42,159 nucleotides of DNA, taken from the IMG/VR virus record IMGVR_UViG_3300020045_007290, positions 1 through 42,159 of that record, one strand, 5' to 3'. Under the pieces are notes generated by a model. The model saw only the letters and a program-made list of their open reading frames with translations, did not search any database and had not been told where the DNA came from. Numbering within the stretch: the first letter of the stretch is position 1; every line of letters begins with the position of its first letter. Shown here in pieces: positions 5,386 to 16,090 of the stretch. Made by a program: the position numbers and the translations under genes. The stretch is from a virus (Duplodnaviria > Caudoviricetes).

Positions 5386-5427
5386 TTTTACAAAAACGTA
5401 AAACATAAAAGAAAAGTATTATATTTG
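5386..5427 (+). promoter_or_regulatory. Operator TTTTACAAAAACGTAAAA (5386-5403) plus -7 box TATATTTG (5420-5427) upstream of folE
   Basis: Repeated motif and promoter consensus. Confidence 0.75.
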
Positions 5428-5448
5428 TCAAAAATTATTAGTCGCTCA

Positions 5449-5997
5449 ATGAAAATAAACACTAATGAACTGAAAGCAGTTCAAACACTTTTGAAATCAA
5501 TTGGACAAGATACGAGCCGCGAAGGCTTGATCGACACGCCAAAAAGATATGTGAAATTCCTGAAAGAGTTTTGCACTCCCAAAAAATTTAAGTTCACAAT
5601 GTTTCAGAATGAAGGTTCTGATCGTATGATCATTGTAAAAGATATTCCTTTCTTTTCGTTGTGTGAACATCATTTAGCGCCTTTCTTCGGGACTGCTGCA
5701 ATAGCTTACATCCCGAATGATAAGATCGTAGGCTTATCAAAACTACCTCGCACGCTTGACATGTTCGCACGACAGCCACAGAATCAAGAACGAATCGGGA
5801 AGCATGTTGCTGATTATTTAATGAAACAGCTGAACCCTAAAGGCGTTGCTGTTATGATTGAAGCACGACATCTTTGCGTTGAAATGCGCGGAGTACAAAA
5901 GCATAATGTTTCGACAGTTACTTCAGAAATGCGTGGCGTGTTTCTTGATGATCTGAACTGTCGCCAAGAATTCTTATCACTAATAAAAAACAAATAA
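5449..5997 (+). CDS. folE: GTP cyclohydrolase I
   Basis: REGLIDTPKR, SLCEHHLAPF, GLSKL, QE, HLCVEMRGV; ATG 5449 is preferred because TTG 5425 lies inside the -7 box. Confidence 0.95.
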   Translation: MKINTNELKAVQTLLKSIGQDTSREGLIDTPKRYVKFLKEFCTPKKFKFTMFQNEGSDRMIIVKDIPFFSLCEHHLAPFFGTAAIAYIPNDKIVGLSKLPRTLDMFARQPQNQERIGKHVADYLMKQLNPKGVAVMIEARHLCVEMRGVQKHNVSTVTSEMRGVFLDDLNCRQEFLSLIKNK

Positions 5998-6489
5998 ATG
6001 ATCACAGCTGAACGATACCACGATATTTCGTGTGGGCATAGAGTTTATGGACACGAAAGCAAATGCGCTCACTTGCATGGGCATAATTACAGAATTCATT
6101 TCAAGGTTAAAGCGGATGATGATACACTTGATACAGTCGGGCGCGTTGTTGATTTCTCAGTGATCAAAGAAAAACTTTGCATGTGGTTAGAAAACACATG
6201 GGATCATAAAATGTTGATTTGGGAACTAGATCCTTTTTGCAAGAAGATTGCTGAACTTGACCCGAACGGATTAGTGATCACAAACTTTAATCCCACAGCT
6301 GAAAATATTGCTAAATACCTTGTCGAGGTGATCGCACCAAAGCAGCTTTCAGAAACAGGATGCACATTGATCGAATGCAGAATCGAAGAAACTGCAAAGT
6401 GTTCAGCAACTTATTCGAAAGCTGACTGCTTAGAACGCGTTGAAATTTTAGAAAGCAAGATGGAAGAAGTTTTGCCTAGCATATCATAA
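5998..6489 (+). CDS. queD: 6-carboxytetrahydropterin synthase
   Basis: GHR, CAHLHGHNY, DF, WDH, PTAENIA, ET motifs. Confidence 0.93.
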   Translation: MITAERYHDISCGHRVYGHESKCAHLHGHNYRIHFKVKADDDTLDTVGRVVDFSVIKEKLCMWLENTWDHKMLIWELDPFCKKIAELDPNGLVITNFNPTAENIAKYLVEVIAPKQLSETGCTLIECRIEETAKCSATYSKADCLERVEILESKMEEVLPSIS

Positions 6490-6518
6490 TAAATACTAAC
6501 CCTTAAAAAATAGAAAAC

Positions 6519-6932
6519 ATGTTTAGATTAATTCAAGGATTCTCGAAATACGAAATTTCTGAAACAGGAATCATTCGTAATGTTAAAACAAAAATGATCG
6601 TTACAAAAGAGCAAGGCGGTACAACTTGCCGAATGATCGATGATTCAGGCGTAAGAAAGTCTGTGAAAATTTCTGAAATTAAAGCTGCTGGCGTTTCTGC
6701 TGCTGCTCCAAAGAAAGAAGCGAAAAAAGAAATCACAGCAACAAAAGCACCAAAGAAAGTGAAAGAAAAGAAAGAAGCGAAAGAGCGCGGGAAACTTTCT
6801 GATGCTCAAACTGCTGAGATTAGAACGATTTTCAAGAAAGGCGATACAAAGCAAAAAGACCTTGCAGCGCGTTTCAAAGTACACCCATCAACAATTTCTG
6901 AAATCATTAACTTAAAAACTAGAAACAAATAA
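6519..6932 (+). CDS. NUMOD4-like / K-A-E-rich linker / HTH protein lacking an HNH core
   Basis: IQGFSKYEISETGIIRN at the N-terminus; KLS...EIR...QKDLAARFKVHPSTISEI at the C-terminus. Confidence 0.65.
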   Translation: MFRLIQGFSKYEISETGIIRNVKTKMIVTKEQGGTTCRMIDDSGVRKSVKISEIKAAGVSAAAPKKEAKKEITATKAPKKVKEKKEAKERGKLSDAQTAEIRTIFKKGDTKQKDLAARFKVHPSTISEIINLKTRNK

Positions 6933-7597
6933 TGAGCAAAGCAGTCGTTATATTTTCGGGCGGTCAAGATTCTACAACGTGCCTTTTTTGGGCGCTGAAT
7001 CGATTCGCTGAGGTTGAATGTATTACATTTAACTATGGGCAAAAGCATGTGATCGAACTGAAGCAATCAAAGATCATTTGCGAAAAAGCAAAAGTGAAAC
7101 AAACGATCATCGACATTTCTTTCTTAGATCAGATCGTGGAATCAGCATTGATTTCGAATGGCGACATTAATGCAACGAACGAAAAAGGACTGCCTGCTTC
7201 ATTCGTCCCGAACAGAAATCAGCTGTTCATTACATTAGCACACGCATACGCTCAGAAGATTAATGCAACGCATCTGATTACTGGAGTTTGTCAGACAGAT
7301 TATTCAGGCTATCCTGATTGCCGTCAAGACTTCATCGATGCTGTTCAGCTTGCTTCGAACATCGGGTCAGATTCTAAAATCACAATCTTAACTCCACTGA
7401 TGCACCTCAGCAAAGCGCAAATTTTTAATCTTGCAGCTGTTAATAATTGCTTAGAAGATGTGATCGAATTAAGTCATACTTGCTACAACGGGAACAGATT
7501 TAAAAGACACAATTGGGGGCATGGCTGTGGTGAATGTGCTGCTTGCAAATTACGAATGAATGGATATAAGGAATATAAACTATTAACAACAAACTAA
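6932..7597 (+). CDS. queC: 7-cyano-7-deazaguanine (preQ0) synthase
   Basis: SGGQDST, YGQKH, FVPNRN, YPDCR, TCY...CGECAAC. Confidence 0.96.
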
Positions 7598-7602
7598 AAA
7601 CG

Positions 7603-8016
7603 ATGCAAAAAGTAAATCCAAAAGTAGGACAAACAGCAGAAGGAAAATTGATTCCTTTCGTGAGTGAAAAATTTATCAAAGCAAAAGAATTGAAAACTTT
7701 TATCTTCAGTTCAAAGCAAAAGATCGAGATCAAAACATCTGAATTTTCAGCTGTGTGCCCTTTCTCGGGATTGCCTGATCTTGCAAAAGTGATCATCACT
7801 TATTTTCCTGATGGGAAGAAAGCAATCGAGTTGAAAAGCTTAAAATATTATTTCGTATCATTCAGAAACGTTGGTATTTATCAAGAAGCTGTTACAAAAA
7901 GAATCTTCACTGATCTGAAGAAAGTTTTGAAAACGAATCGCATTCATGTTGAAACTATTTATGCTACTCGTGGCGGGTTTGATGTAACATGCGAAGAAGG
8001 AAAGAAACTTGCATGA
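7603..8016 (+). CDS. queF: PreQ0 reductase, single-domain QueF
   Basis: CPFSGLPD catalytic Cys/Asp, QueF motif [11 protein letters not shown]. Confidence 0.88.
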
Positions 8017-8735
8017 AGTATTTTTTCAGCAGTCCAGGAAACTCAGAACAAATCCTGAACGAATACAACGTGAAAAACTATTTGCTTTCATTCGCTGTCG
8101 ATGCGAAAGCTGCAAAGAAGTTCATCGGGCATGACATCATTATCGATTCAGGTGCATTCAGTGTTTGGAACAAAGGTGGATCGATAGATATAAATGAGTA
8201 TCTTAAATTTTGCAAACAGCAACCGCAAGAATGGACGTTCATAAATTTAGATGTTATCCCGAAGACAGGTTCATCAGCTGAAGATATTGAAGAATGCTGC
8301 AAACAAGGTTTTGAAAATTTCTTGTTTCTGAAACAGCATTTGAAAAATGTGATGCCTGTTTTCCATTACGGTGATGATATAAAGTGGCTACATGAATATA
8401 TTAAACATGCTGACTACATAGGTATATCTCCCGCGAACGATACGCATGAGAACATTAAACGTGCTTTCTTGACTGAAGTGTTCGACATCACGAAAGATCG
8501 CATTAAAACGCACGGATTAGGTTATTCATCATTTAAAGGCTTATCGATGTTTCCTTTTTACTCTGTTGATTCGATCAGCTGGAAACGTTATCAGATTCAG
8601 ATCGATCAAGAAAAGATTGGGATGTTGAAGTGTAAAGCACTAAGATTCTTGGAGCGAAACAGAATAAAAGAGTTTTTGGAATTAGAACAGAACATCACAA
8701 ACATCTGGAAAAAACGAGGCGTACTATGGCATTAG
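8013..8735 (+). CDS. dpdA: DNA-guanine transglycosylase (TGT fold)
   Basis: IDSGAFS, NLDVIP, PVFH, HGLG, SVDSISW motifs; cluster context; ATGA overlap with queF. Confidence 0.88.
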
Positions 8736-9205
8736 AGAACTTTAAAAAGATAAATTCAAAACTGATTGATGTTGCTGCTTGGAGCATTAAGAATGAGAAC
8801 AGCGATTCTTATAAGAAGCTTCGCGCATCAGTTCTGAAGAATAGTCAAACGCAATTATTTCTTGTCAGAGAAAAAGAAGACGGACGCTTCGAAGTGTTTA
8901 AAGGAAAGAAAGCTTTCAAAATAATATCTGAAAAAGAAGACATCGACTTGATCTGTTACAATTACGGGAAGATTTCTGAAGTTCAATCAAAGCTTATCTA
9001 TTTAGAAAATTCGATCATTCATTCAAATAACTATATCGAGGTAGGTGAATTGATAAAAAGCTTGCTGAGTGAGTTTAAGGACTACGAAATCGAACCTTAC
9101 ATCAATTTCAATCTTGAAGAAATGAAGGACTTAATAAATCTTGCAAACTTCGATTGGGACAAATACAAGAAGAAAAAAGTAAACGCAATTCAAACACTAT
9201 TTTAA
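8726..9205 (+). CDS. Degenerate ParB/Srx-like N-terminal-domain protein
   Basis: YKKLRASV.KN.Q...VRE..DGRFEV..G pattern; the canonical GxHR is replaced by GKKA. Confidence 0.5.
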   Translation: MALENFKKINSKLIDVAAWSIKNENSDSYKKLRASVLKNSQTQLFLVREKEDGRFEVFKGKKAFKIISEKEDIDLICYNYGKISEVQSKLIYLENSIIHSNNYIEVGELIKSLLSEFKDYEIEPYINFNLEEMKDLINLANFDWDKYKKKKVNAIQTLF

Positions 9206-9206
9206 A

Positions 9207-9905
9207 ATGCAGAAAGAACCACATTTAGTAATTTCAGAAAAGTTTTATTCGTTGCAAGGCGAAGGAGTAACAACAGGCTGCCCATCGATCTTCATTCGTT
9301 TAGCGGGCTGCAACATACTCTGTCAAGGTAAAGGGTGGGTGTGCGATACTATTGAAGTATGGAAATCAGGATTGAAAATTGATTTCGAACGTGTGCTTAG
9401 TAAAGGAGAAGTTGAAAGCTTAAAAAAAGGTGTACACTTAATCTTTACGGGTGGAGAACCGTTGCTTCATCAGCAAAAAATTATTGATTATTTAGACTAT
9501 CTGAATAAAACTTATTCAATGATTCCTTTTGTAGAGATCGAAACGAACGGGACAATCATTCCTGATCCGCGCCTTGTTGAATACGTTTCACAATGGAACG
9601 TATCTCCGAAGCTGTCGAACTCGGGAGTGACAGAAGAAAAGCGAATCAATCCTTTTGCGCTTGCAAAGTTTGACAACATCGAAAATCTGATCTTTAAATT
9701 TGTGATCGCGAATGATAAAGATGTCGAGGAGTTGCAATATTTTTTGCCCATGAGCCAACACAAGATTGTTTTAATGCCTGCAGGCGCAACACAAGAAGAA
9801 TTAAACATCACTCGCATGATTGTTGTTGAAGCTTGCAAAGCTTACGGTTACAGGTATTCAGAAAGATTGCACATTGTTATTTGGAATAAAAAAACAGGTG
9901 TATAA
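9207..9905 (+). CDS. queE: 7-carboxy-7-deazaguanine synthase (radical SAM)
   Basis: FYSLQGEG, FIRLAGCN, TGGEPLL, IETNGT, VSPKL, RLH. Confidence 0.94.
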   Translation: MQKEPHLVISEKFYSLQGEGVTTGCPSIFIRLAGCNILCQGKGWVCDTIEVWKSGLKIDFERVLSKGEVESLKKGVHLIFTGGEPLLHQQKIIDYLDYLNKTYSMIPFVEIETNGTIIPDPRLVEYVSQWNVSPKLSNSGVTEEKRINPFALAKFDNIENLIFKFVIANDKDVEELQYFLPMSQHKIVLMPAGATQEELNITRMIVVEACKAYGYRYSERLHIVIWNKKTGV

Positions 9906-9959
9906 ATTTTTGTTTGTCGATTCTATTTTGTAGTTTTACAAAATATTATTGAAAACAAA

Positions 9960-10064
9960 TCTTTTGTGTCGCTCCAAAAGACTAAGATAAACGGTTTAAC
10001 AACCCGATCCCTTAGACAATTGCCAGTTGAGCGACATGGTGAAAGTTTAGGGGATTATTTTTTT
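9960..10064 (+). promoter_or_regulatory. Structured leader: two hairpins with complementary loops, the second followed by a U-tract (attenuator-like)
   Basis: HP1 9960-9981 with loop TGTCGCTC; HP2 10007-10055 with loop containing GAGCGACA; T-run 10058-10064. Confidence 0.65.
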
Positions 10065-10077
10065 AATACAATATCGA

Positions 10078-10839
10078 ATGAGTAAAATGCCTTACATTTC
10101 TTTTTATGTTGGTGACTACATTAAAAGCACACGCGTTCTTAATTTAGAAGAAAAGGGAGCATGGACAGAAATACTTTGGCACATTTGGGAACATGGGCAA
10201 GCTGGAATTATTGAAGGAACGTGGGAAGATATTTGTCTGATCATCGGCTGTCCTGATCTTCAGAAATGCAAAAGTATTTTTAGCAAAATTCTAGCAAAAA
10301 AAGTTTGTGAATTAGTCGTGATTAATGCTAATAATGACTTATCTTTAGAAACAGTTAGGATCGTTAATAGACGGATGGAGCGGGAGTTTAATTTAAAAAA
10401 AAAACGTAGTGAAATAGGAAAATCAGGTGGCGAAGCTAAAGCAGAAAATTCTAGCAAAGCTTTAGCAAAAACCTACCAAATTACTGATAATGATATTGAA
10501 GATGATATTGAAGATGATTTTAAAAATAAAATTGATATACAAAGTAAGCTGTCGGAATTTTATCTATTCCGTAAACAATTAAAAAAACCGATTATAAAAG
10601 CTTCAGTTAAATCATTTAGAGCGAAGTTGATCAAACTATCAAACGCGAACGAAGCTGATGCAATCGCGATTCTTGAACAGTCTATCGCTAATGGATGGCA
10701 AGGTATATTCGCACTTCAACAACAAAGAAATGGACAACAAAATTCAAATAACAGAACAGAAAGGACAGGATCTATTGCAAATGCTAAAGGCCTCTCCGAA
10801 GCAATATTGGACGATTATAGCTCCAAAAACGGCAGTTGA
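10078..10839 (+). CDS. Replication initiator (DUF1376/YdaU-like N-terminus)
   Basis: PYISFYVGDY...LNLEEKGAW at the N-terminus; ILEQSIANGWQGIF at the C-terminus. Confidence 0.8.
   Translation: MSKMPYISFYVGDYIKSTRVLNLEEKGAWTEILWHIWEHGQAGIIEGTWEDICLIIGCPDLQKCKSIFSKILAKKVCELVVINANNDLSLETVRIVNRRMEREFNLKKKRSEIGKSGGEAKAENSSKALAKTYQITDNDIEDDIEDDFKNKIDIQSKLSEFYLFRKQLKKPIIKASVKSFRAKLIKLSNANEADAIAILEQSIANGWQGIFALQQQRNGQQNSNNRTERTGSIANAKGLSEAILDDYSSKNGS
10279..10540. repeat. Putative iterons and AT-rich tract (candidate origin)
   Basis: T[T/C]TAGCAAA x4 (about 10279, 10290, 10450, 10461); GATATTGAAGAT x2 at 10492-10515. Confidence 0.5.
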
Positions 10840-11482
10840 AGCGTTCGAAAGTCAGAGCATGTCAGTTGCATTGATGCGAAAAGAAATGAGTGAAGTCGTG
10901 ACTAAAGCATTTTTAATGTACATCGTAACTGATCTTGTAGAATCTTTCAACGTTGGGAAGACAATGGATGCAATGCAAGCAGCATTCACAGTGAATGGGA
11001 TAATTGCTGATTATTGGTTTTTAAAGCCTGAAGAATTAAAATATTGTTTTAATGAAGCTAAAAAAGGAAGATATGGAACAATGTACGATAGAATTGATGC
11101 TGCTGTAATATTCGGATGGATTGAAACATTTTTAAAAGAACGAACACAAATTTGTTATCAGAAGAATGAGGAGCAGAATAAGCAATACAATACGGGCACA
11201 ATACACCCTGATGTTGCGGCTAAGTTGAAGTTGAATATCAAACAACCTGAACCAGTTAATTTAGATTTGATCACGCCTAAAAAAAGAGAACAAACAGAAC
11301 AGGAAAAAATTATTCAAGATTTATTTAAAGAGTTTGATGAATTGTATAAGGAACAAAACAAAACTTTTGATGATACAGGTTTTAGAGTTGTGTTATTTAA
11401 AGGAGAATTGTTGTCAAGCAGTCAATACATATCAACACGAATTGAAGAAATACTAAATGATAAAAAAAATAAAAAAGATTAG
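10730..11482 (+). CDS. Putative helicase loader or replication partner
   Basis: Overlaps the 3' end of the initiator (lambda O/P-like layout); L..EEL..CF..AKKGRYG..YDRID motif. Confidence 0.55.
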   Translation: MDNKIQITEQKGQDLLQMLKASPKQYWTIIAPKTAVEAFESQSMSVALMRKEMSEVVTKAFLMYIVTDLVESFNVGKTMDAMQAAFTVNGIIADYWFLKPEELKYCFNEAKKGRYGTMYDRIDAAVIFGWIETFLKERTQICYQKNEEQNKQYNTGTIHPDVAAKLKLNIKQPEPVNLDLITPKKREQTEQEKIIQDLFKEFDELYKEQNKTFDDTGFRVVLFKGELLSSSQYISTRIEEILNDKKNKKD

Positions 11483-11780
11483 TATCGAAGTCAAAAGACT
11501 TCTTGAAAAGTACCCACACTTACGCGATTCAGACAATAAGCTTGTAGCTACAATATGGAGAAACGAAATGGGAAAAGATGATCAGCAACAAAGCAAGTCG
11601 CTGAGTACAACAGCATTCTGTTTCTTAGAAGCACTGTCTTCAGGAAAGCATACTTCAGCTGACATCATCACGCGAGCAAGGAGAAAAGTTCAAGAACAAA
11701 ATCCTTTCTTGCGAGGCACATCATACAGACAAAGAAAAGATAAACAAGAGGAAGTTAGATCACAAATAAAATCAATATGA
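11457..11780 (+). CDS. Conserved phage hypothetical protein
   Basis: LRDSDNKL...ITRARRKVQE.NP.LRG. Confidence 0.7.
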   Translation: MIKKIKKISIEVKRLLEKYPHLRDSDNKLVATIWRNEMGKDDQQQSKSLSTTAFCFLEALSSGKHTSADIITRARRKVQEQNPFLRGTSYRQRKDKQEEVRSQIKSI

Positions 11781-12106
11781 AAGCAGTAAACTGGGGAAAT
11801 AGACCTTTTGAGGAATTAAAGTTAGTAGTTTTTAAAGTGTTTGATCAAGAAGAAACGCTGCCTTTTTTCGATGCAACAGATAAACAGATAATCGATTTCT
11901 TAGCAAAGAAGTACCACGAAACGGTAGTAATTGTAAGAACAGAAAAAGTTGAAGTTCTTAATGTAATAACTTATAAACCTGTAGAATACAAACTGGAAAT
12001 ATCTAAATTAAAATCAAGCATCGATCTTGCTAAACGTGATGAAATACACAAAAATGTTTTAGCAATTAAAGAAAAATATGAAGAAAAAGAAAAAGGAAAA
12101 AAATGA
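11777..12106 (+). CDS. Hypothetical protein
   Basis: ATGA-coupled ORF. Confidence 0.65.
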   Translation: MKAVNWGNRPFEELKLVVFKVFDQEETLPFFDATDKQIIDFLAKKYHETVVIVRTEKVEVLNVITYKPVEYKLEISKLKSSIDLAKRDEIHKNVLAIKEKYEEKEKGKK

Positions 12107-12279
12107 TTCACAACGCGAATAGATATGCAAAAACAAACGGACTGAAGAAAGAAATTCAAGTCAGCGAAAACTTAACACATCGATTCGTTGTCGTTACGAA
12201 AGATCATTCAATCATTGAAGCATACAACAGAATGCTGTCGAATAAGAATTCAGATTTAGAATTGAAAAAAATAATATAA
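12103..12279 (+). CDS. Hypothetical protein (58 aa, not in the ORF track)
   Basis: MIHNANRYAK...LKKII fills the gap with an ATGA overlap. Confidence 0.55.
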   Translation: MIHNANRYAKTNGLKKEIQVSENLTHRFVVVTKDHSIIEAYNRMLSNKNSDLELKKII

Positions 12280-12281
12280 AA

Positions 12282-12683
12282 ATGACACATCCACTTTTAA
12301 ACGGTTTCGGAAGCAGCAGATTCAGACCTGATCCAAAGAAGCCACCGACTGAAAAGAAAAAGCCTCAGCCGATAAAAAAGCAAAGCGCAAAGAACATTCG
12401 CAACACACGCGAGTACTCAGAAGGAAGAAAGATCTTTCTTGCGATGCCTGAAAATAAATGGTGCTATGTTGAAGGATGTGGAAAGAGAGCGAACACAGTT
12501 GATCACATTATGGGTCGAGAAGGATTCGCAGATGATCACGCAAGAACAAACAACATACCTCTGCTGCTTGATGAACGCTACTGGAAACCTTGCTGCTTAG
12601 AACACAATTTAGAAATGGAAACAAATCAAGAACTTAAAAACAAATATCATCTTAGCCAAATACACGGAGGGAAAATAAAGTAA
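12282..12683 (+). CDS. HNH-like nuclease
   Basis: CYVEGC...VDHIMGR...W.PCC..HN. Confidence 0.65.
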   Translation: MTHPLLNGFGSSRFRPDPKKPPTEKKKPQPIKKQSAKNIRNTREYSEGRKIFLAMPENKWCYVEGCGKRANTVDHIMGREGFADDHARTNNIPLLLDERYWKPCCLEHNLEMETNQELKNKYHLSQIHGGKIK

Positions 12684-13018
12684 TGCAAAGAAAAAGTGCA
12701 AAAGTTTTAGCAACTGAAAAGTGGGTTGATGCGTACACAGAAATGAATCGCAGACCGCCTACCTATAAAGAAATACAAGAAGCATTCGGCATTGGAAAAT
12801 GTGCTGCATACGCTCGCTGTTCGAAGTTCAGACACAAAATGAGCCAGCACACTAAACCGAAAAAGATTCTTTCGCCTTTAGAAATAGATGAAATACTTCT
12901 GAAGCAATTTCCTAGAACAGATACACTTGGCGGCATATTGATGGATTTACCTACAAACAATTACAGAATCGAAGGCGCTGTGTGGGCAATTAATAATATT
13001 CACTTATTCAATAAATAA
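12683..13018 (+). CDS. Protein with a LexA-type winged-HTH-like N-terminus
   Basis: RPPTYKEIQEAFGI. Confidence 0.5.
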   Translation: MQRKSAKVLATEKWVDAYTEMNRRPPTYKEIQEAFGIGKCAAYARCSKFRHKMSQHTKPKKILSPLEIDEILLKQFPRTDTLGGILMDLPTNNYRIEGAVWAINNIHLFNK

Positions 13019-13019
13019 A

Positions 13020-13421
13020 ATGATAAAATTTGATTCAGAACAGGTTGTCACAGATAAGACAGCTTTAATAGTTAAACACCCAACAGGTATTGTTTACGAA
13101 GTGCAAGCAGGCGGTATTGGTTGTACTCACCCTAAAGTTGAAGGATTCATTCTTGATTGGGGAAATTTAGGACAAGATTTTGATGATTGTTCTTTTGGAT
13201 GTGCATACATTTCACAAGATGAAGGATTGCGCGATAAGCTTGCAAAAGCTTTGTCAGAATATTTATTAAAAGAAACAGAGCGAAGCACATGTCAAACGCT
13301 ATTTGATTTTGACAGAGTGAGCGAACTTGAAGAAGGTTGGTGGCCAGTTGTTGTGATTGGAAAAATAGCTGATCAAAGTGTAAACTGGAAAGGATATTTA
13401 CACACACAAAATTGCGACTAA
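13020..13421 (+). CDS. DUF6210-like protein
   Basis: LIV..PTGIVY..QAGG..C.HP.VEG...EGWWPV...NCD. Confidence 0.6.
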   Translation: MIKFDSEQVVTDKTALIVKHPTGIVYEVQAGGIGCTHPKVEGFILDWGNLGQDFDDCSFGCAYISQDEGLRDKLAKALSEYLLKETERSTCQTLFDFDRVSELEEGWWPVVVIGKIADQSVNWKGYLHTQNCD

Positions 13422-13609
13422 TGAAAACAACAACATTCACTTGCAACTTATGCCGAGATAAAAAAGAAAGAAAAGACTTGAAATGTTTTTATTTCAAATG
13501 CGATATAATTCCACAACAGTTTGTGATCGTAGATGATGTCGAAAAATCTGATGTTCACATTTGTACATCTTGCTTAACTGTAATTGAAAAGAATTTTTTA
13601 ACTAAATAA
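13421..13609 (+). CDS. Small Zn-finger protein
   Basis: CNLC...HICTSC; ATG at 13421 overlaps the upstream stop. Confidence 0.6.
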   Translation: MKTTTFTCNLCRDKKERKDLKCFYFKCDIIPQQFVIVDDVEKSDVHICTSCLTVIEKNFLTK

Positions 13610-13617
13610 ATAAAACA

Positions 13618-13752
13618 ATGAAAGAAAGAACAGCAACCTACAACGGAACAACGATAAAAGTTTATCGTTCATCAGTAAGAGCAAACACTTGGATTAATTC
13701 GAATGATTGCAAAACAGAATACAAAGAAAGCGACTTAAAATTTATTGACTAA
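13618..13752 (+). CDS. Hypothetical protein (44 aa, not in the ORF track)
   Basis: MKERTATYNG...LKFID; its stop overlaps the next ATG. Confidence 0.5.
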   Translation: MKERTATYNGTTIKVYRSSVRANTWINSNDCKTEYKESDLKFID

Positions 13753-13973
13753 TGAAAAAGTATCTGCTAAAACTTTGGTGGTGCAAGCTGTGGAGATTTC
13801 ACGATTGGACTTCGCAAGTTTACAAAAAAGAGCCTCCACCTGAAATCAATACGATTGAAGATTACTGCAAGTGGGCTGAAATGTACTGTGATCGATGTGG
13901 ACACGTTTCAGAATTATCAAAAAACTTCACTAAAGAAATGAAAGAACGATGCAAAAATTTGGAATTGAAATAA
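13752..13973 (+). CDS. Small Cys/His protein
   Basis: C....HDW...CDRCG. Confidence 0.6.
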   Translation: MKKYLLKLWWCKLWRFHDWTSQVYKKEPPPEINTIEDYCKWAEMYCDRCGHVSELSKNFTKEMKERCKNLELK

Positions 13974-14293
13974 GAAAGATTGGCGATGTGAAAGCATTGT
14001 TCGCGGACGTTGATTTAGTGCTGAAGAAATTCAACATGAATCCTCAGAGCGTAAGCGATGAAGCAAAAGCATCAACAGTCGCCCACGCACTTCAGAAGAT
14101 GTTGAAAGTCGAAAGTCACTTTTCTGTTTGCACAATTACAAATTGCGCGAACATTTGTCAAGTATGTATTTCGAAAGAGCGACTTGATTTGTATCATGCA
14201 GCACATTGTATAAGCTGGAATGAAATGCTTCCCGATTACAGACAATGCCTTGTTGCTATGATTTTAGATGATTTCAGAACAGTTTTAAGCTAA
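13949..14293 (+). CDS. Hypothetical protein
   Basis: 114 aa ORF within the operon. Confidence 0.65.
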   Translation: MQKFGIEIRKIGDVKALFADVDLVLKKFNMNPQSVSDEAKASTVAHALQKMLKVESHFSVCTITNCANICQVCISKERLDLYHAAHCISWNEMLPDYRQCLVAMILDDFRTVLS

Positions 14294-15190: not shown

Positions 15191-16090
15191 ATGGCAAAAA
15201 AATCAGAAGAAAAAGAAGCGAAATCACCTTACACAAGCAAGTGGATTTTAGAAAAAGCAATTCCTATCATTAGAGAATACAATGGGAATTTCACGATTCG
15301 TGCTTTGCATTACAGACTTGTAGGCGAAGGCATGACAAACAATGACAAGCACTATAAAAAAGTAGTGAACACGATGATCAAAGCGCGATGGGATGGAGAT
15401 GTGGAGATGGATGCTTTCATGGATCACGAAAGAGAAACAATCGGTCAAACAGATTACGAAGCAACTGATGTGCAAACAGCTGTTGATGAAGCGAAAGAAT
15501 CGATTCGTTTTTGGGCAGGCTATTACAAAAAGAATAAGTGGGAGAATCAGCCAAACTATGTTGAAGTGTTCATTGAAAAGAAAGCTTTGCAAGGCGTGTT
15601 TGAGCGCCCATGTAAAGAATGGAAAGTTGCATTGAATCCTTGCAAGGGCTACCCATCATTAACGTTCTTAAATGATGCAAAAGATCGTTTTGAAGCTGCT
15701 ATTGAAGAAGGAAAGAATCCAATCATTCTTTATTTCGGTGACTACGATTGCAGCGGTGAAGATATTCCACGCAGCATTGTTGAAAATCTTGAAAAGATGG
15801 GCGTGACAGTTGATCTCAGAAGGGTTGCACTGAAGAAGGAACAAGTGATCAAATGGAAACTGCCGCCAGCACCAACGAAAGAAAGTGATTCGCGAGGTGC
15901 TAAGTGGGACGGGTTAGGACAAGTCGAACTGGATGCTGTGATGCCTGACAAGATCGAAAAGCTTTTAGTCGATTCACTTGAAAGTGTTTTCGATGAAGAT
16001 TTGTATGATGAATTAAAAGAACAGCAAGCGACTGAAAAAACAGAATACAAAAAAATTCTGAAGCGAGATTTCAAACAGCTGCTTGATTAA
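15191..16090 (+). CDS. Toprim-domain protein, TopoVI-A/Spo11/JetD-like
   Basis: TIRALHYRL (winged-helix Tyr), VFIEK, KGY, YFGDYDxSG, ELDA. Confidence 0.7.
   Translation: MAKKSEEKEAKSPYTSKWILEKAIPIIREYNGNFTIRALHYRLVGEGMTNNDKHYKKVVNTMIKARWDGDVEMDAFMDHERETIGQTDYEATDVQTAVDEAKESIRFWAGYYKKNKWENQPNYVEVFIEKKALQGVFERPCKEWKVALNPCKGYPSLTFLNDAKDRFEAAIEEGKNPIILYFGDYDCSGEDIPRSIVENLEKMGVTVDLRRVALKKEQVIKWKLPPAPTKESDSRGAKWDGLGQVELDAVMPDKIEKLLVDSLESVFDEDLYDELKEQQATEKTEYKKILKRDFKQLLD

Follow-up and report, generated by a model that had tools for sequence, protein, structure and literature searches.

Two hairpins with complementary loops lie between a queE-like gene and a likely replication initiator gene in the genome of an uncultivated phage, which raises the question of what they control and how. 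The window analysed here is the whole record IMGVR_UViG_3300020045_007290, which comprises 42,159 bases with direct terminal repeats and carries terminase, portal, capsid, and tail genes; CheckV gives 63% for it, so the record is possibly incomplete although terminal repeats are present. The initial annotation read the hairpins as a kissing-loop RNA built into a terminator right after queE, which might gate replication and couple it to modification capacity.

Anatomy and setting of the element

The positions originally assigned to both hairpins, to the inner stem, and to the T-run all agree with the sequence (Table 1). The arms of hairpin 2 (10007-10017/10045-10055) are extended to 10006/10056 by a G-U pair, and an inner stem (10020-10025/10037-10042) closes a loop (10026-10036) that carries the 8-nt complement of loop 1 at 10029-10036. 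We refer to the letters presented by loop 1 as code X and to their complement in loop 2 as X'. The stem, which ends 21 nt before the ATG at 10078, is followed by an A and seven U, and the U-tract ends 13 nt before this ATG. Among 1,168 local hairpin pairs (at most 130 nt apart, both strands, whole window), X and X' form the sole loop-loop complement of at least 7 nt, and 6-nt complements occur four times; the match is not due to chance. RNA folding of the leader yields both hairpins at -30.7 kcal/mol (z -2.96), and 2/200 shuffles were as good.

Hairpin 2 combines a stable stem with a U-tract, as an intrinsic terminator does, but a simple terminator scan makes no call there because the loop and the internal loop exceed the limits of that scan. 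"Terminator" is therefore used here as a prediction. The boxes at -33 and -7 follow a consensus that we take to be the Bacteroidota promoter type, and a -7 box of the same type also heads the homologous leaders. Transcription is predicted to start at about 9943-9945, as we assume from this consensus. The -7 box sits within an 8-bp inverted repeat (9926-9945), a possible operator that is kept only partly in the relative L166.

Support for the downstream gene as a replication initiator, the function given in the initial annotation, comes from its PHROGs match (replication initiation O-like, 2.9e-11) and its iteron-like repeats, whereas its DUF1376 score of 27.2 bits falls below the Pfam cut-off of 30.1. 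By analogy with lambda O-type genes, these repeats likely mark the origin. The repeat regions extend over 10278-10300 and 10449-10510, and a tandem repeat in the gene encodes EDDIEDD. Initiator relatives of the MxKDPAFLFY type come mostly from Bacteroidota bins, with some from Clostridia and other bins. No solved structure matched the profile of the window's initiator, and no cultured phage was found as a close relative of it. The early region also contains an RNase H gene (1058-1537) and a gene matching PHROGs "DNA topoisomerase" (15191-16090).

Table 1. Coordinates of the element and its neighbouring features in the window.
Feature	Position	Strand	Remarks
queE-like radical SAM gene	9207..9905	+	phrog_2076, 1.1e-54; neighbour, outside the element
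Predicted -33 promoter box (TTTG)	9909..9912	+	invariant in L165 and L166; next 18 nt 56-67% identical
Predicted Bacteroidota -7 box (TAnnTTTA variant of TAnnTTTG)	9931..9938	+	six consensus positions invariant in L165/L166
Hairpin 1, presenting code X	9960..9981	+	7 bp; loop 9967-9974; 100% identical in L165 and L166
Code X, conserved 7-nt core	9968..9974	+	8 nt from 9967 in the window's genome; 7-bp duplex -10.8 kcal/mol
Linker with 4-bp mini-hairpin (9993-10004)	9982..10005	+	33-50% identical in relatives
Hairpin 2, predicted intrinsic terminator	10006..10056	+	-22.4 kcal/mol
Code X', complement of X, in hairpin 2 loop	10029..10035	+	loop 10026-10035 invariant in relatives
U-tract (T7)	10058..10064	+	kept in relatives
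Likely replication initiator gene	10078..10839	+	DUF1376-like N-terminus, O-like C-terminus (Pfam, PHROGs)
Iteron-like direct repeats within initiator gene	10278..10482	+	10278-10300, 10449-10482
DUF6633 ORF	10658..11482	+	downstream; true start may be later; likely co-transcribed

The element is a leader of its own

Three loci, L165, L166, and L167, encode initiators that share 72-78% protein identity with that of the window. Hairpin 1 and loop 2 are unchanged in all three, hairpin 2 is 86-92% identical, and the -33/-7 promoter pattern is kept; the linker and spacer regions of these close relatives have diverged (33-67% identical). Of the perfect 8-nt complement noted in the window, seven loop-loop pairs are retained in these relatives and the eighth is lost, so that the conserved core is 7 bp (9968-9974 with 10029-10035). 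In the inner stem of hairpin 2, L165 and L166 show a compensatory change from A-U to U-A at 10025/10037. Reading frames in the leader differ between relatives, with no conserved leader ORF in the window's clade, and a leader peptide coupled to the initiator was rejected for this clade; a leader frame is present in other family members.

The queE-like gene is the last gene of a complete folE-queD-queC-queF-dpdA-parB-queE cluster (5425-9905), which we take to be likely involved in 7-deazaguanine DNA modification and which is conserved in L166 and L167. An HTH/HNH-like gene interrupts the cluster at 6519-6932, and its members include queF-like, dpdA-like (tRNA-ribosyltransferase fold), and ParB-like genes. 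Using tblastn with seven cluster proteins, we found the cluster beside the element in only 3/84 loci, namely L165, L166, and L167. These 84 loci consist of 77 from a relaxed match call, some of them likely false positives, plus extras; at least 800 nt of upstream DNA was present in 70 of the 78 loci with a mapped start, and 81/84 loci were without the cluster in the DNA examined. The genes upstream of the element are unrelated between loci (DnaA-C-like, methyltransferase-like, single-strand-binding, and others). The adjacency to queE, correctly described for the window, is therefore local gene order, and the conserved predicted promoter of the element's own, which had been overlooked, makes it a leader in its own right and not a 3' element of queE. 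Coupling of replication to modification capacity through queE or preQ0/preQ1 was rejected on three grounds: the rarity of the arrangement, the separate promoter box, and the lack of an Rfam match. The observation that the element has no preQ1-riboswitch consensus was borne out, as the models of classes I-III gave no match in the window. In two freshwater-type clades, small genes encoding a DnaA C-terminal helix-turn-helix immediately precede the element (L263, 1450-1875; L333, 1534-1893) and are candidate regulators of its promoter.

Related leaders carry freely changing, compensated codes

Sequence comparison places the element in a family of leaders that head Bacteroidota phage replication operons and share one order: promoter box, hairpin with code X, terminator-type hairpin with complement X', U-tract, and gene. 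To define this family, we started from 286 loci that had an ATG and matched the N-terminus of the initiator, of which 270 had 260 nt of upstream DNA and 244 were unique. Where the intergenic DNA measured 60 nt or more, a -7 box was present in 99 leaders and a final hairpin in 93, and these formed 33 clusters. The 5' leader was searched for a sequence complementary to the 14 apical nt of the final hairpin, with filters that were blind to the match yet designed after examples had been seen. Matches of at least 7 nt were present in 15/33 cluster representatives (61/93 members), as compared to 20/1,056 swapped pairs (1.9%). The initial annotation had proposed looking for loop-loop covariation among homologous leaders; it is present, and the reading of a loop-loop pairing within a terminator-type hairpin before a likely initiator is upheld by these leaders and by their compensated code changes.

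In one freshwater-type clade, 45/46 unique leaders pair at 7/7 positions with five different codes and one is mismatched, and in a clade with a leader ORF 14/14 pair at all nine positions, G-U pairs included. The diversity of the code columns equals that of four-fold degenerate sites and does not exceed it (0.34 vs 0.36 for seven sites; 0.43 vs 0.49 for nine sites), the initiator genes used for this comparison being mosaic. The stem columns of the same leaders vary by 0-0.08, so that the paired code columns are 4-5 times more variable, and near-identical leaders differ mostly within the code. Thirteen tabulated codes have no invariant position in common, and further codes occur in cultured phages. 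Scanning viral contigs for the exact code returned 118 stretches, and the code itself is not the conserved feature; a scan for the window's terminator arms returned 112 stretches, with no close relative of the element among the matches listed. The L486 leader has a single code mismatch and may be a recombinant or an intermediate between two codes.

The family has two architectures, in which X lies either in a hairpin loop, as in the window, or free at the 5' end, immediately followed by a short leader ORF. The second occurs in L002, L004, the L319 clade, and L678 (phi19:3), and the end of the leader ORF falls within hairpin 2, or the ORF overlaps the start of the initiator gene (ATGA). Two Betaproteobacteria-like loci, L024 and L028, whose host assignment is putative, show the hairpin-loop architecture with covarying codes. 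The linker measures 11-17 nt in 11 of 14 hand-measured hairpin-hairpin examples; linkers are AU-rich and nearly invariant in one clade. The lengths of hairpins 1 and 2 were not significantly anticorrelated in these examples (rho -0.26, p 0.36, n=14), and no steric rule emerged. A gut-type group (L563, L564, L567, L570, L575, L578, L581, and L604, the last at 1201-1248) has a terminator-like hairpin with the window's basal stem and a variable loop, and no matching upstream code was seen in the leaders of this group.

The design is present in cultured phages

All five cultured flavobacterial phages examined (11b, tooticki6-1, Harreka_1, phi19:3, and elemoA_7-9A) carry the design at the head of their replication genes, and in four of them a further small gene lies between element and initiator. 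Covariation extends to these isolates: tooticki6-1, morran9-1, snusmum9-1, and mumin9-1, which share the same host strains, have three compensated codes. These Baltic phages are described as replicating only lytically (PMC7077304). An integrase above cut-off was found in 1/40 records of initiator relatives, with a weak match in one more, and most of these records carry the element. S24 repressor, resolvase, and ParA were detected in 0/30 records of initiator relatives, and none of these, nor an integrase, was found in the window's genome, a record that is possibly incomplete. Judged by gene content, carriers of the element appear to be mostly non-temperate; they would therefore have no lysogen in need of immunity, which lowers the case for a function in lysogenic immunity.

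Folding of the leader and proposed switch

Folding of successive 3' ends, an equilibrium prediction without pseudoknots, favoured X:X' for ends between 10036 and 10050, the 5' arm of the terminator being held by the linker, and the terminator from 10056 onwards. In the nascent RNA, linker positions 9982-9986 are predicted to pair with 10011-10015 of this arm; the excess of the linker pairing over shuffled linkers is weak, as 19, 18, and 8 of 300 shuffles match it. The probability of X:X' in truncated transcripts was 0.99 for the window, 0.98 for L165, and 0.92 for L166, and the full terminator formed once its 3' arm was present. When X was blocked in the fold, the upper terminator stem formed instead. 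A nested X:X' helix with a probability of at least 0.9 was obtained in 10/25 leaders folded, the automatic stop point being misplaced in several of these; leaders without it would need a true pseudoknot, which lies outside the scope of the folding program. Assembled RNA contigs from eight public runs, of 24 listed with small shares of the relative L265, cover the upstream gene, leader, and initiator of this locus in pieces, a pattern that would fit the presence of a separate leader RNA as well as its absence.

The anatomy, the family, the compensated code changes, and the independence from queE are established, unlike the steps of the mechanism that we propose below. The X:X' pairing is very probably functional in the control of the downstream genes. 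We suggest that RNA polymerase would expose X' before the 3' arm of the terminator is free, allowing X to pair with X' as a kiss or, in the window's clade, as a nested helix in which the linker holds the terminator 5' arm. The terminator would then be unable to close and the initiator operon would be read. Transcripts that do terminate, of about 120 nt, would bear a free X' loop and, once accumulated, might bind X on new transcripts in trans and thereby let the terminator form. As a result, initiator synthesis would peak early and then be shut off; kin that co-infect the cell and share its code would be repressed as well, which would drive the codes to diversify. Since a ligand pocket is missing, the switch must be moved by another factor, for which the terminated RNA itself is the simplest candidate; acting as a repressor in trans, it would also explain the turnover of codes. 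The 24-nt linker of the window could span a self-kiss if its mini-hairpin were open, and such a self-kiss would mask X' and weaken the release of a free X' loop.

This full model, in which the leader would be a ligand-free transcription attenuator of the likely initiator with both a cis and a trans step, is our preferred reading, although we hold it tentatively and at somewhat less than an even chance. Its widest form seems doubtful: a protein-free and ligand-free RNA counter in virulent phages, in which the leader of about 120 nt would serve as switch and, via its own terminated copies, as repressor, and in which the 7-letter code would define a replication incompatibility group, so that an established infection silences the initiator of co-infecting kin. 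A widespread coded attenuator offers a testable answer to how small, repressor-less virulent phages dose their initiator and compete in co-infected cells, for which the cultured phages supply three natural codes on the same Flavobacterium strains. If true, the natural codes would provide a ready-made collection of orthogonal switches for transcription in Bacteroidota.

Alternative readings

Anatomy and folding would look the same if the leader worked purely in cis, the competition between X:X' and the terminator setting a fixed or kinetically tuned read-through (through polymerase speed, Mg2+, or a phage or host protein); the short RNA would be a by-product and the code changes neutral, compensated drift. 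Such a cis geometry needs linkers of the length measured in most examples, and it agrees with the scarcity of lysogeny genes and with a code diversity no higher than at neutral sites. However, drift through mismatched intermediates poorly explains codes that vary so much more than the stems around them and make up most of the difference between near-identical leaders, when only 1/46 leaders is mismatched, and we regard a purely cis attenuator as rather unlikely. A processing route like that of P4 is less probable still. Here, termination would be the default or aided by the kiss, the terminated RNA would pair with itself and undergo cleavage within its AU-rich linker, and hairpin 2, once released, would repress via X, in members with a leader ORF by blocking that ORF. 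P4 CI is indeed described as processed from the transcript that it controls (PMC4825925, PMC10111431), the composition of the linkers and their near-invariance in one clade would suit a cut there, and in L002, L004, and the L319 clade X stands before a short leader ORF. Against this route, we found no C4/IsrK match, no second target near the window's start codon, and no conserved leader ORF in its clade, and its direction would be opposite to that of the guanidine-IV precedent.

We consider it quite improbable that the switch is translational, with hairpin 2 hindering ribosome loading, X:X' opening the start region, and the U-run forming part of the initiation region. Control of the IncI initiator by a pseudoknot and an antisense RNA (PMC7646527) offers a parallel, and in many members 10-12 nt separate the end of hairpin 2 from the ATG; yet this distance is 21 nt in the window, a small gene intervenes in 4/5 cultured phages, the U-run follows the stem in all types, and antisense promoters are not enriched. 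The element might also act as DNA, as inverted protein sites or as a single-stranded structure at the origin, for which its place beside an initiator gene with iteron-like repeats would speak. The G-U pairs in stems and codes, the fixed orientation between promoter box and U-run, and the change of codes between near-identical phages fit RNA pairing and not a protein site, and this reading is very improbable. Least probable, to an extreme degree, is a riboswitch for preQ0/preQ1 or another small molecule that couples replication to DNA-modification capacity: the element does follow queE in the window and its three close relatives, and its topology equals that described for guanidine-IV/Gd4v (PMC9788692), but the other loci lack the cluster in the DNA examined and have unrelated upstream genes, no Rfam model matches, and the loop letters, unlike those of ligand pockets, are not conserved across the family. 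The combined cis and trans attenuator remains the reading that we prefer.

Relation to known systems

The Rfam comparison proposed in the initial annotation returned no family: there was no match in the window, only chance-level matches around the element, and the element itself was without a match in 37 related loci and five cultured phages. The C4, c4-2, and IsrK models gave no match, and the 37 related loci gave one int-alpA match, in a different element; an int-alpA RNA (RF02996) lies upstream of a DUF1376-type initiator at L006 1823-1898. With the preQ1 riboswitches of classes I-III, as described in PMC11625349, the element shares only the neighbourhood of a que gene; it lies 3' of the que genes and has neither a conserved pocket nor an Rfam match.

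The likeness to P4 CI and P1 C4 drawn earlier is plausible in logic and fails as family membership. P4 CI is described as a leader-derived trans repressor of replication genes, and in P4 CI with seqA/seqC, P1/P7 C4, and Gifsy-1 IsrK, as in the element, a leader with a site and its complement lies upstream of replication genes; premature termination is the means of control, as predicted for the element (PMC4825925, PMC10111431). X at 9968-9974 corresponds to a seqA-like upstream target, and a search of 10037-14176 for a seqC-like second downstream target gave no match with at most one mismatch. The element differs further in that its complement lies in the terminator loop itself and that its carriers are mostly without integrase or repressor. 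Membership in the CI/C4 family was rejected since neither a C4/IsrK model match nor a second downstream target was found.

In IncI/IncB plasmids, the Inc antisense RNA acts against a pseudoknot that controls the initiator (PMC7646527). In those plasmids, as in the predicted structure of the element, a loop that precedes the initiator pairs in cis with its complement further downstream; in both, the loop letters could set specificity, and some members of the element's family have a leader ORF coupled to the initiator. In contrast to IncI/IncB, no antisense promoter was found for the element, minus-strand -7 boxes not being enriched opposite the target loop (1/18 vs 1/18 controls; the nearest in the window at 10269), its output looks like termination, and its carriers are phages, not plasmids.

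Among the candidates catalogued by Fremin et al. (2023; PMC10690425), three without a name lie upstream of DUF1376 genes. As described there, DNAVirus_187 (49 nt, 122 sequences, freshwater, Bacteroidetes host) and DNAVirus_4653 (124 nt) precede DUF1376/DUF4373/YdaU genes by no more than 25 bp; hairpin 2 has about the same size as the 49-nt candidate. Neither of the two counts as an RNIE terminator in that catalogue, and its main text does not use the word "kissing". Compared by description, DNAVirus_187 might correspond to hairpin 2 in a related clade. We found no description of the element in the literature searched, which did not extend to the supplement of Weinberg 2017 (PMC5737381) and the alignments of Fremin 2023, either of which may hold it.

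A close structural parallel is the guanidine-IV riboswitch, in which a kissing interaction with the terminator loop impedes formation of the full stem, with read-through as the outcome (PMC11611296, PMC7736828). Guanidine-IV (GGAM-1/mepA) and Gd4v are described as two hairpins with a loop-loop pseudoknot, the 3' one a Rho-independent terminator, of about 100 nt and 5' of the controlled gene (PMC7736828, PMC11611296, PMC9788692), and prediction and covariation indicate the same topology for the element. Unlike them, it has free, compensated codes in place of conserved loop nucleotides and no evident ligand, and it stands before an initiator-like phage replication gene instead of sugE, MATE, GNAT, or transaminase genes. 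It thereby bears on whether a kissing loop of the guanidine-IV type on a terminator loop can act without a ligand. By these analogies, the element would resemble the expression platform of guanidine-IV in its action and P4 or IncI in its logic, while lying outside each of these systems, and it is a real, conserved, and apparently undescribed regulatory RNA that would represent a new form of RNA-based replication control, unrelated to queE.
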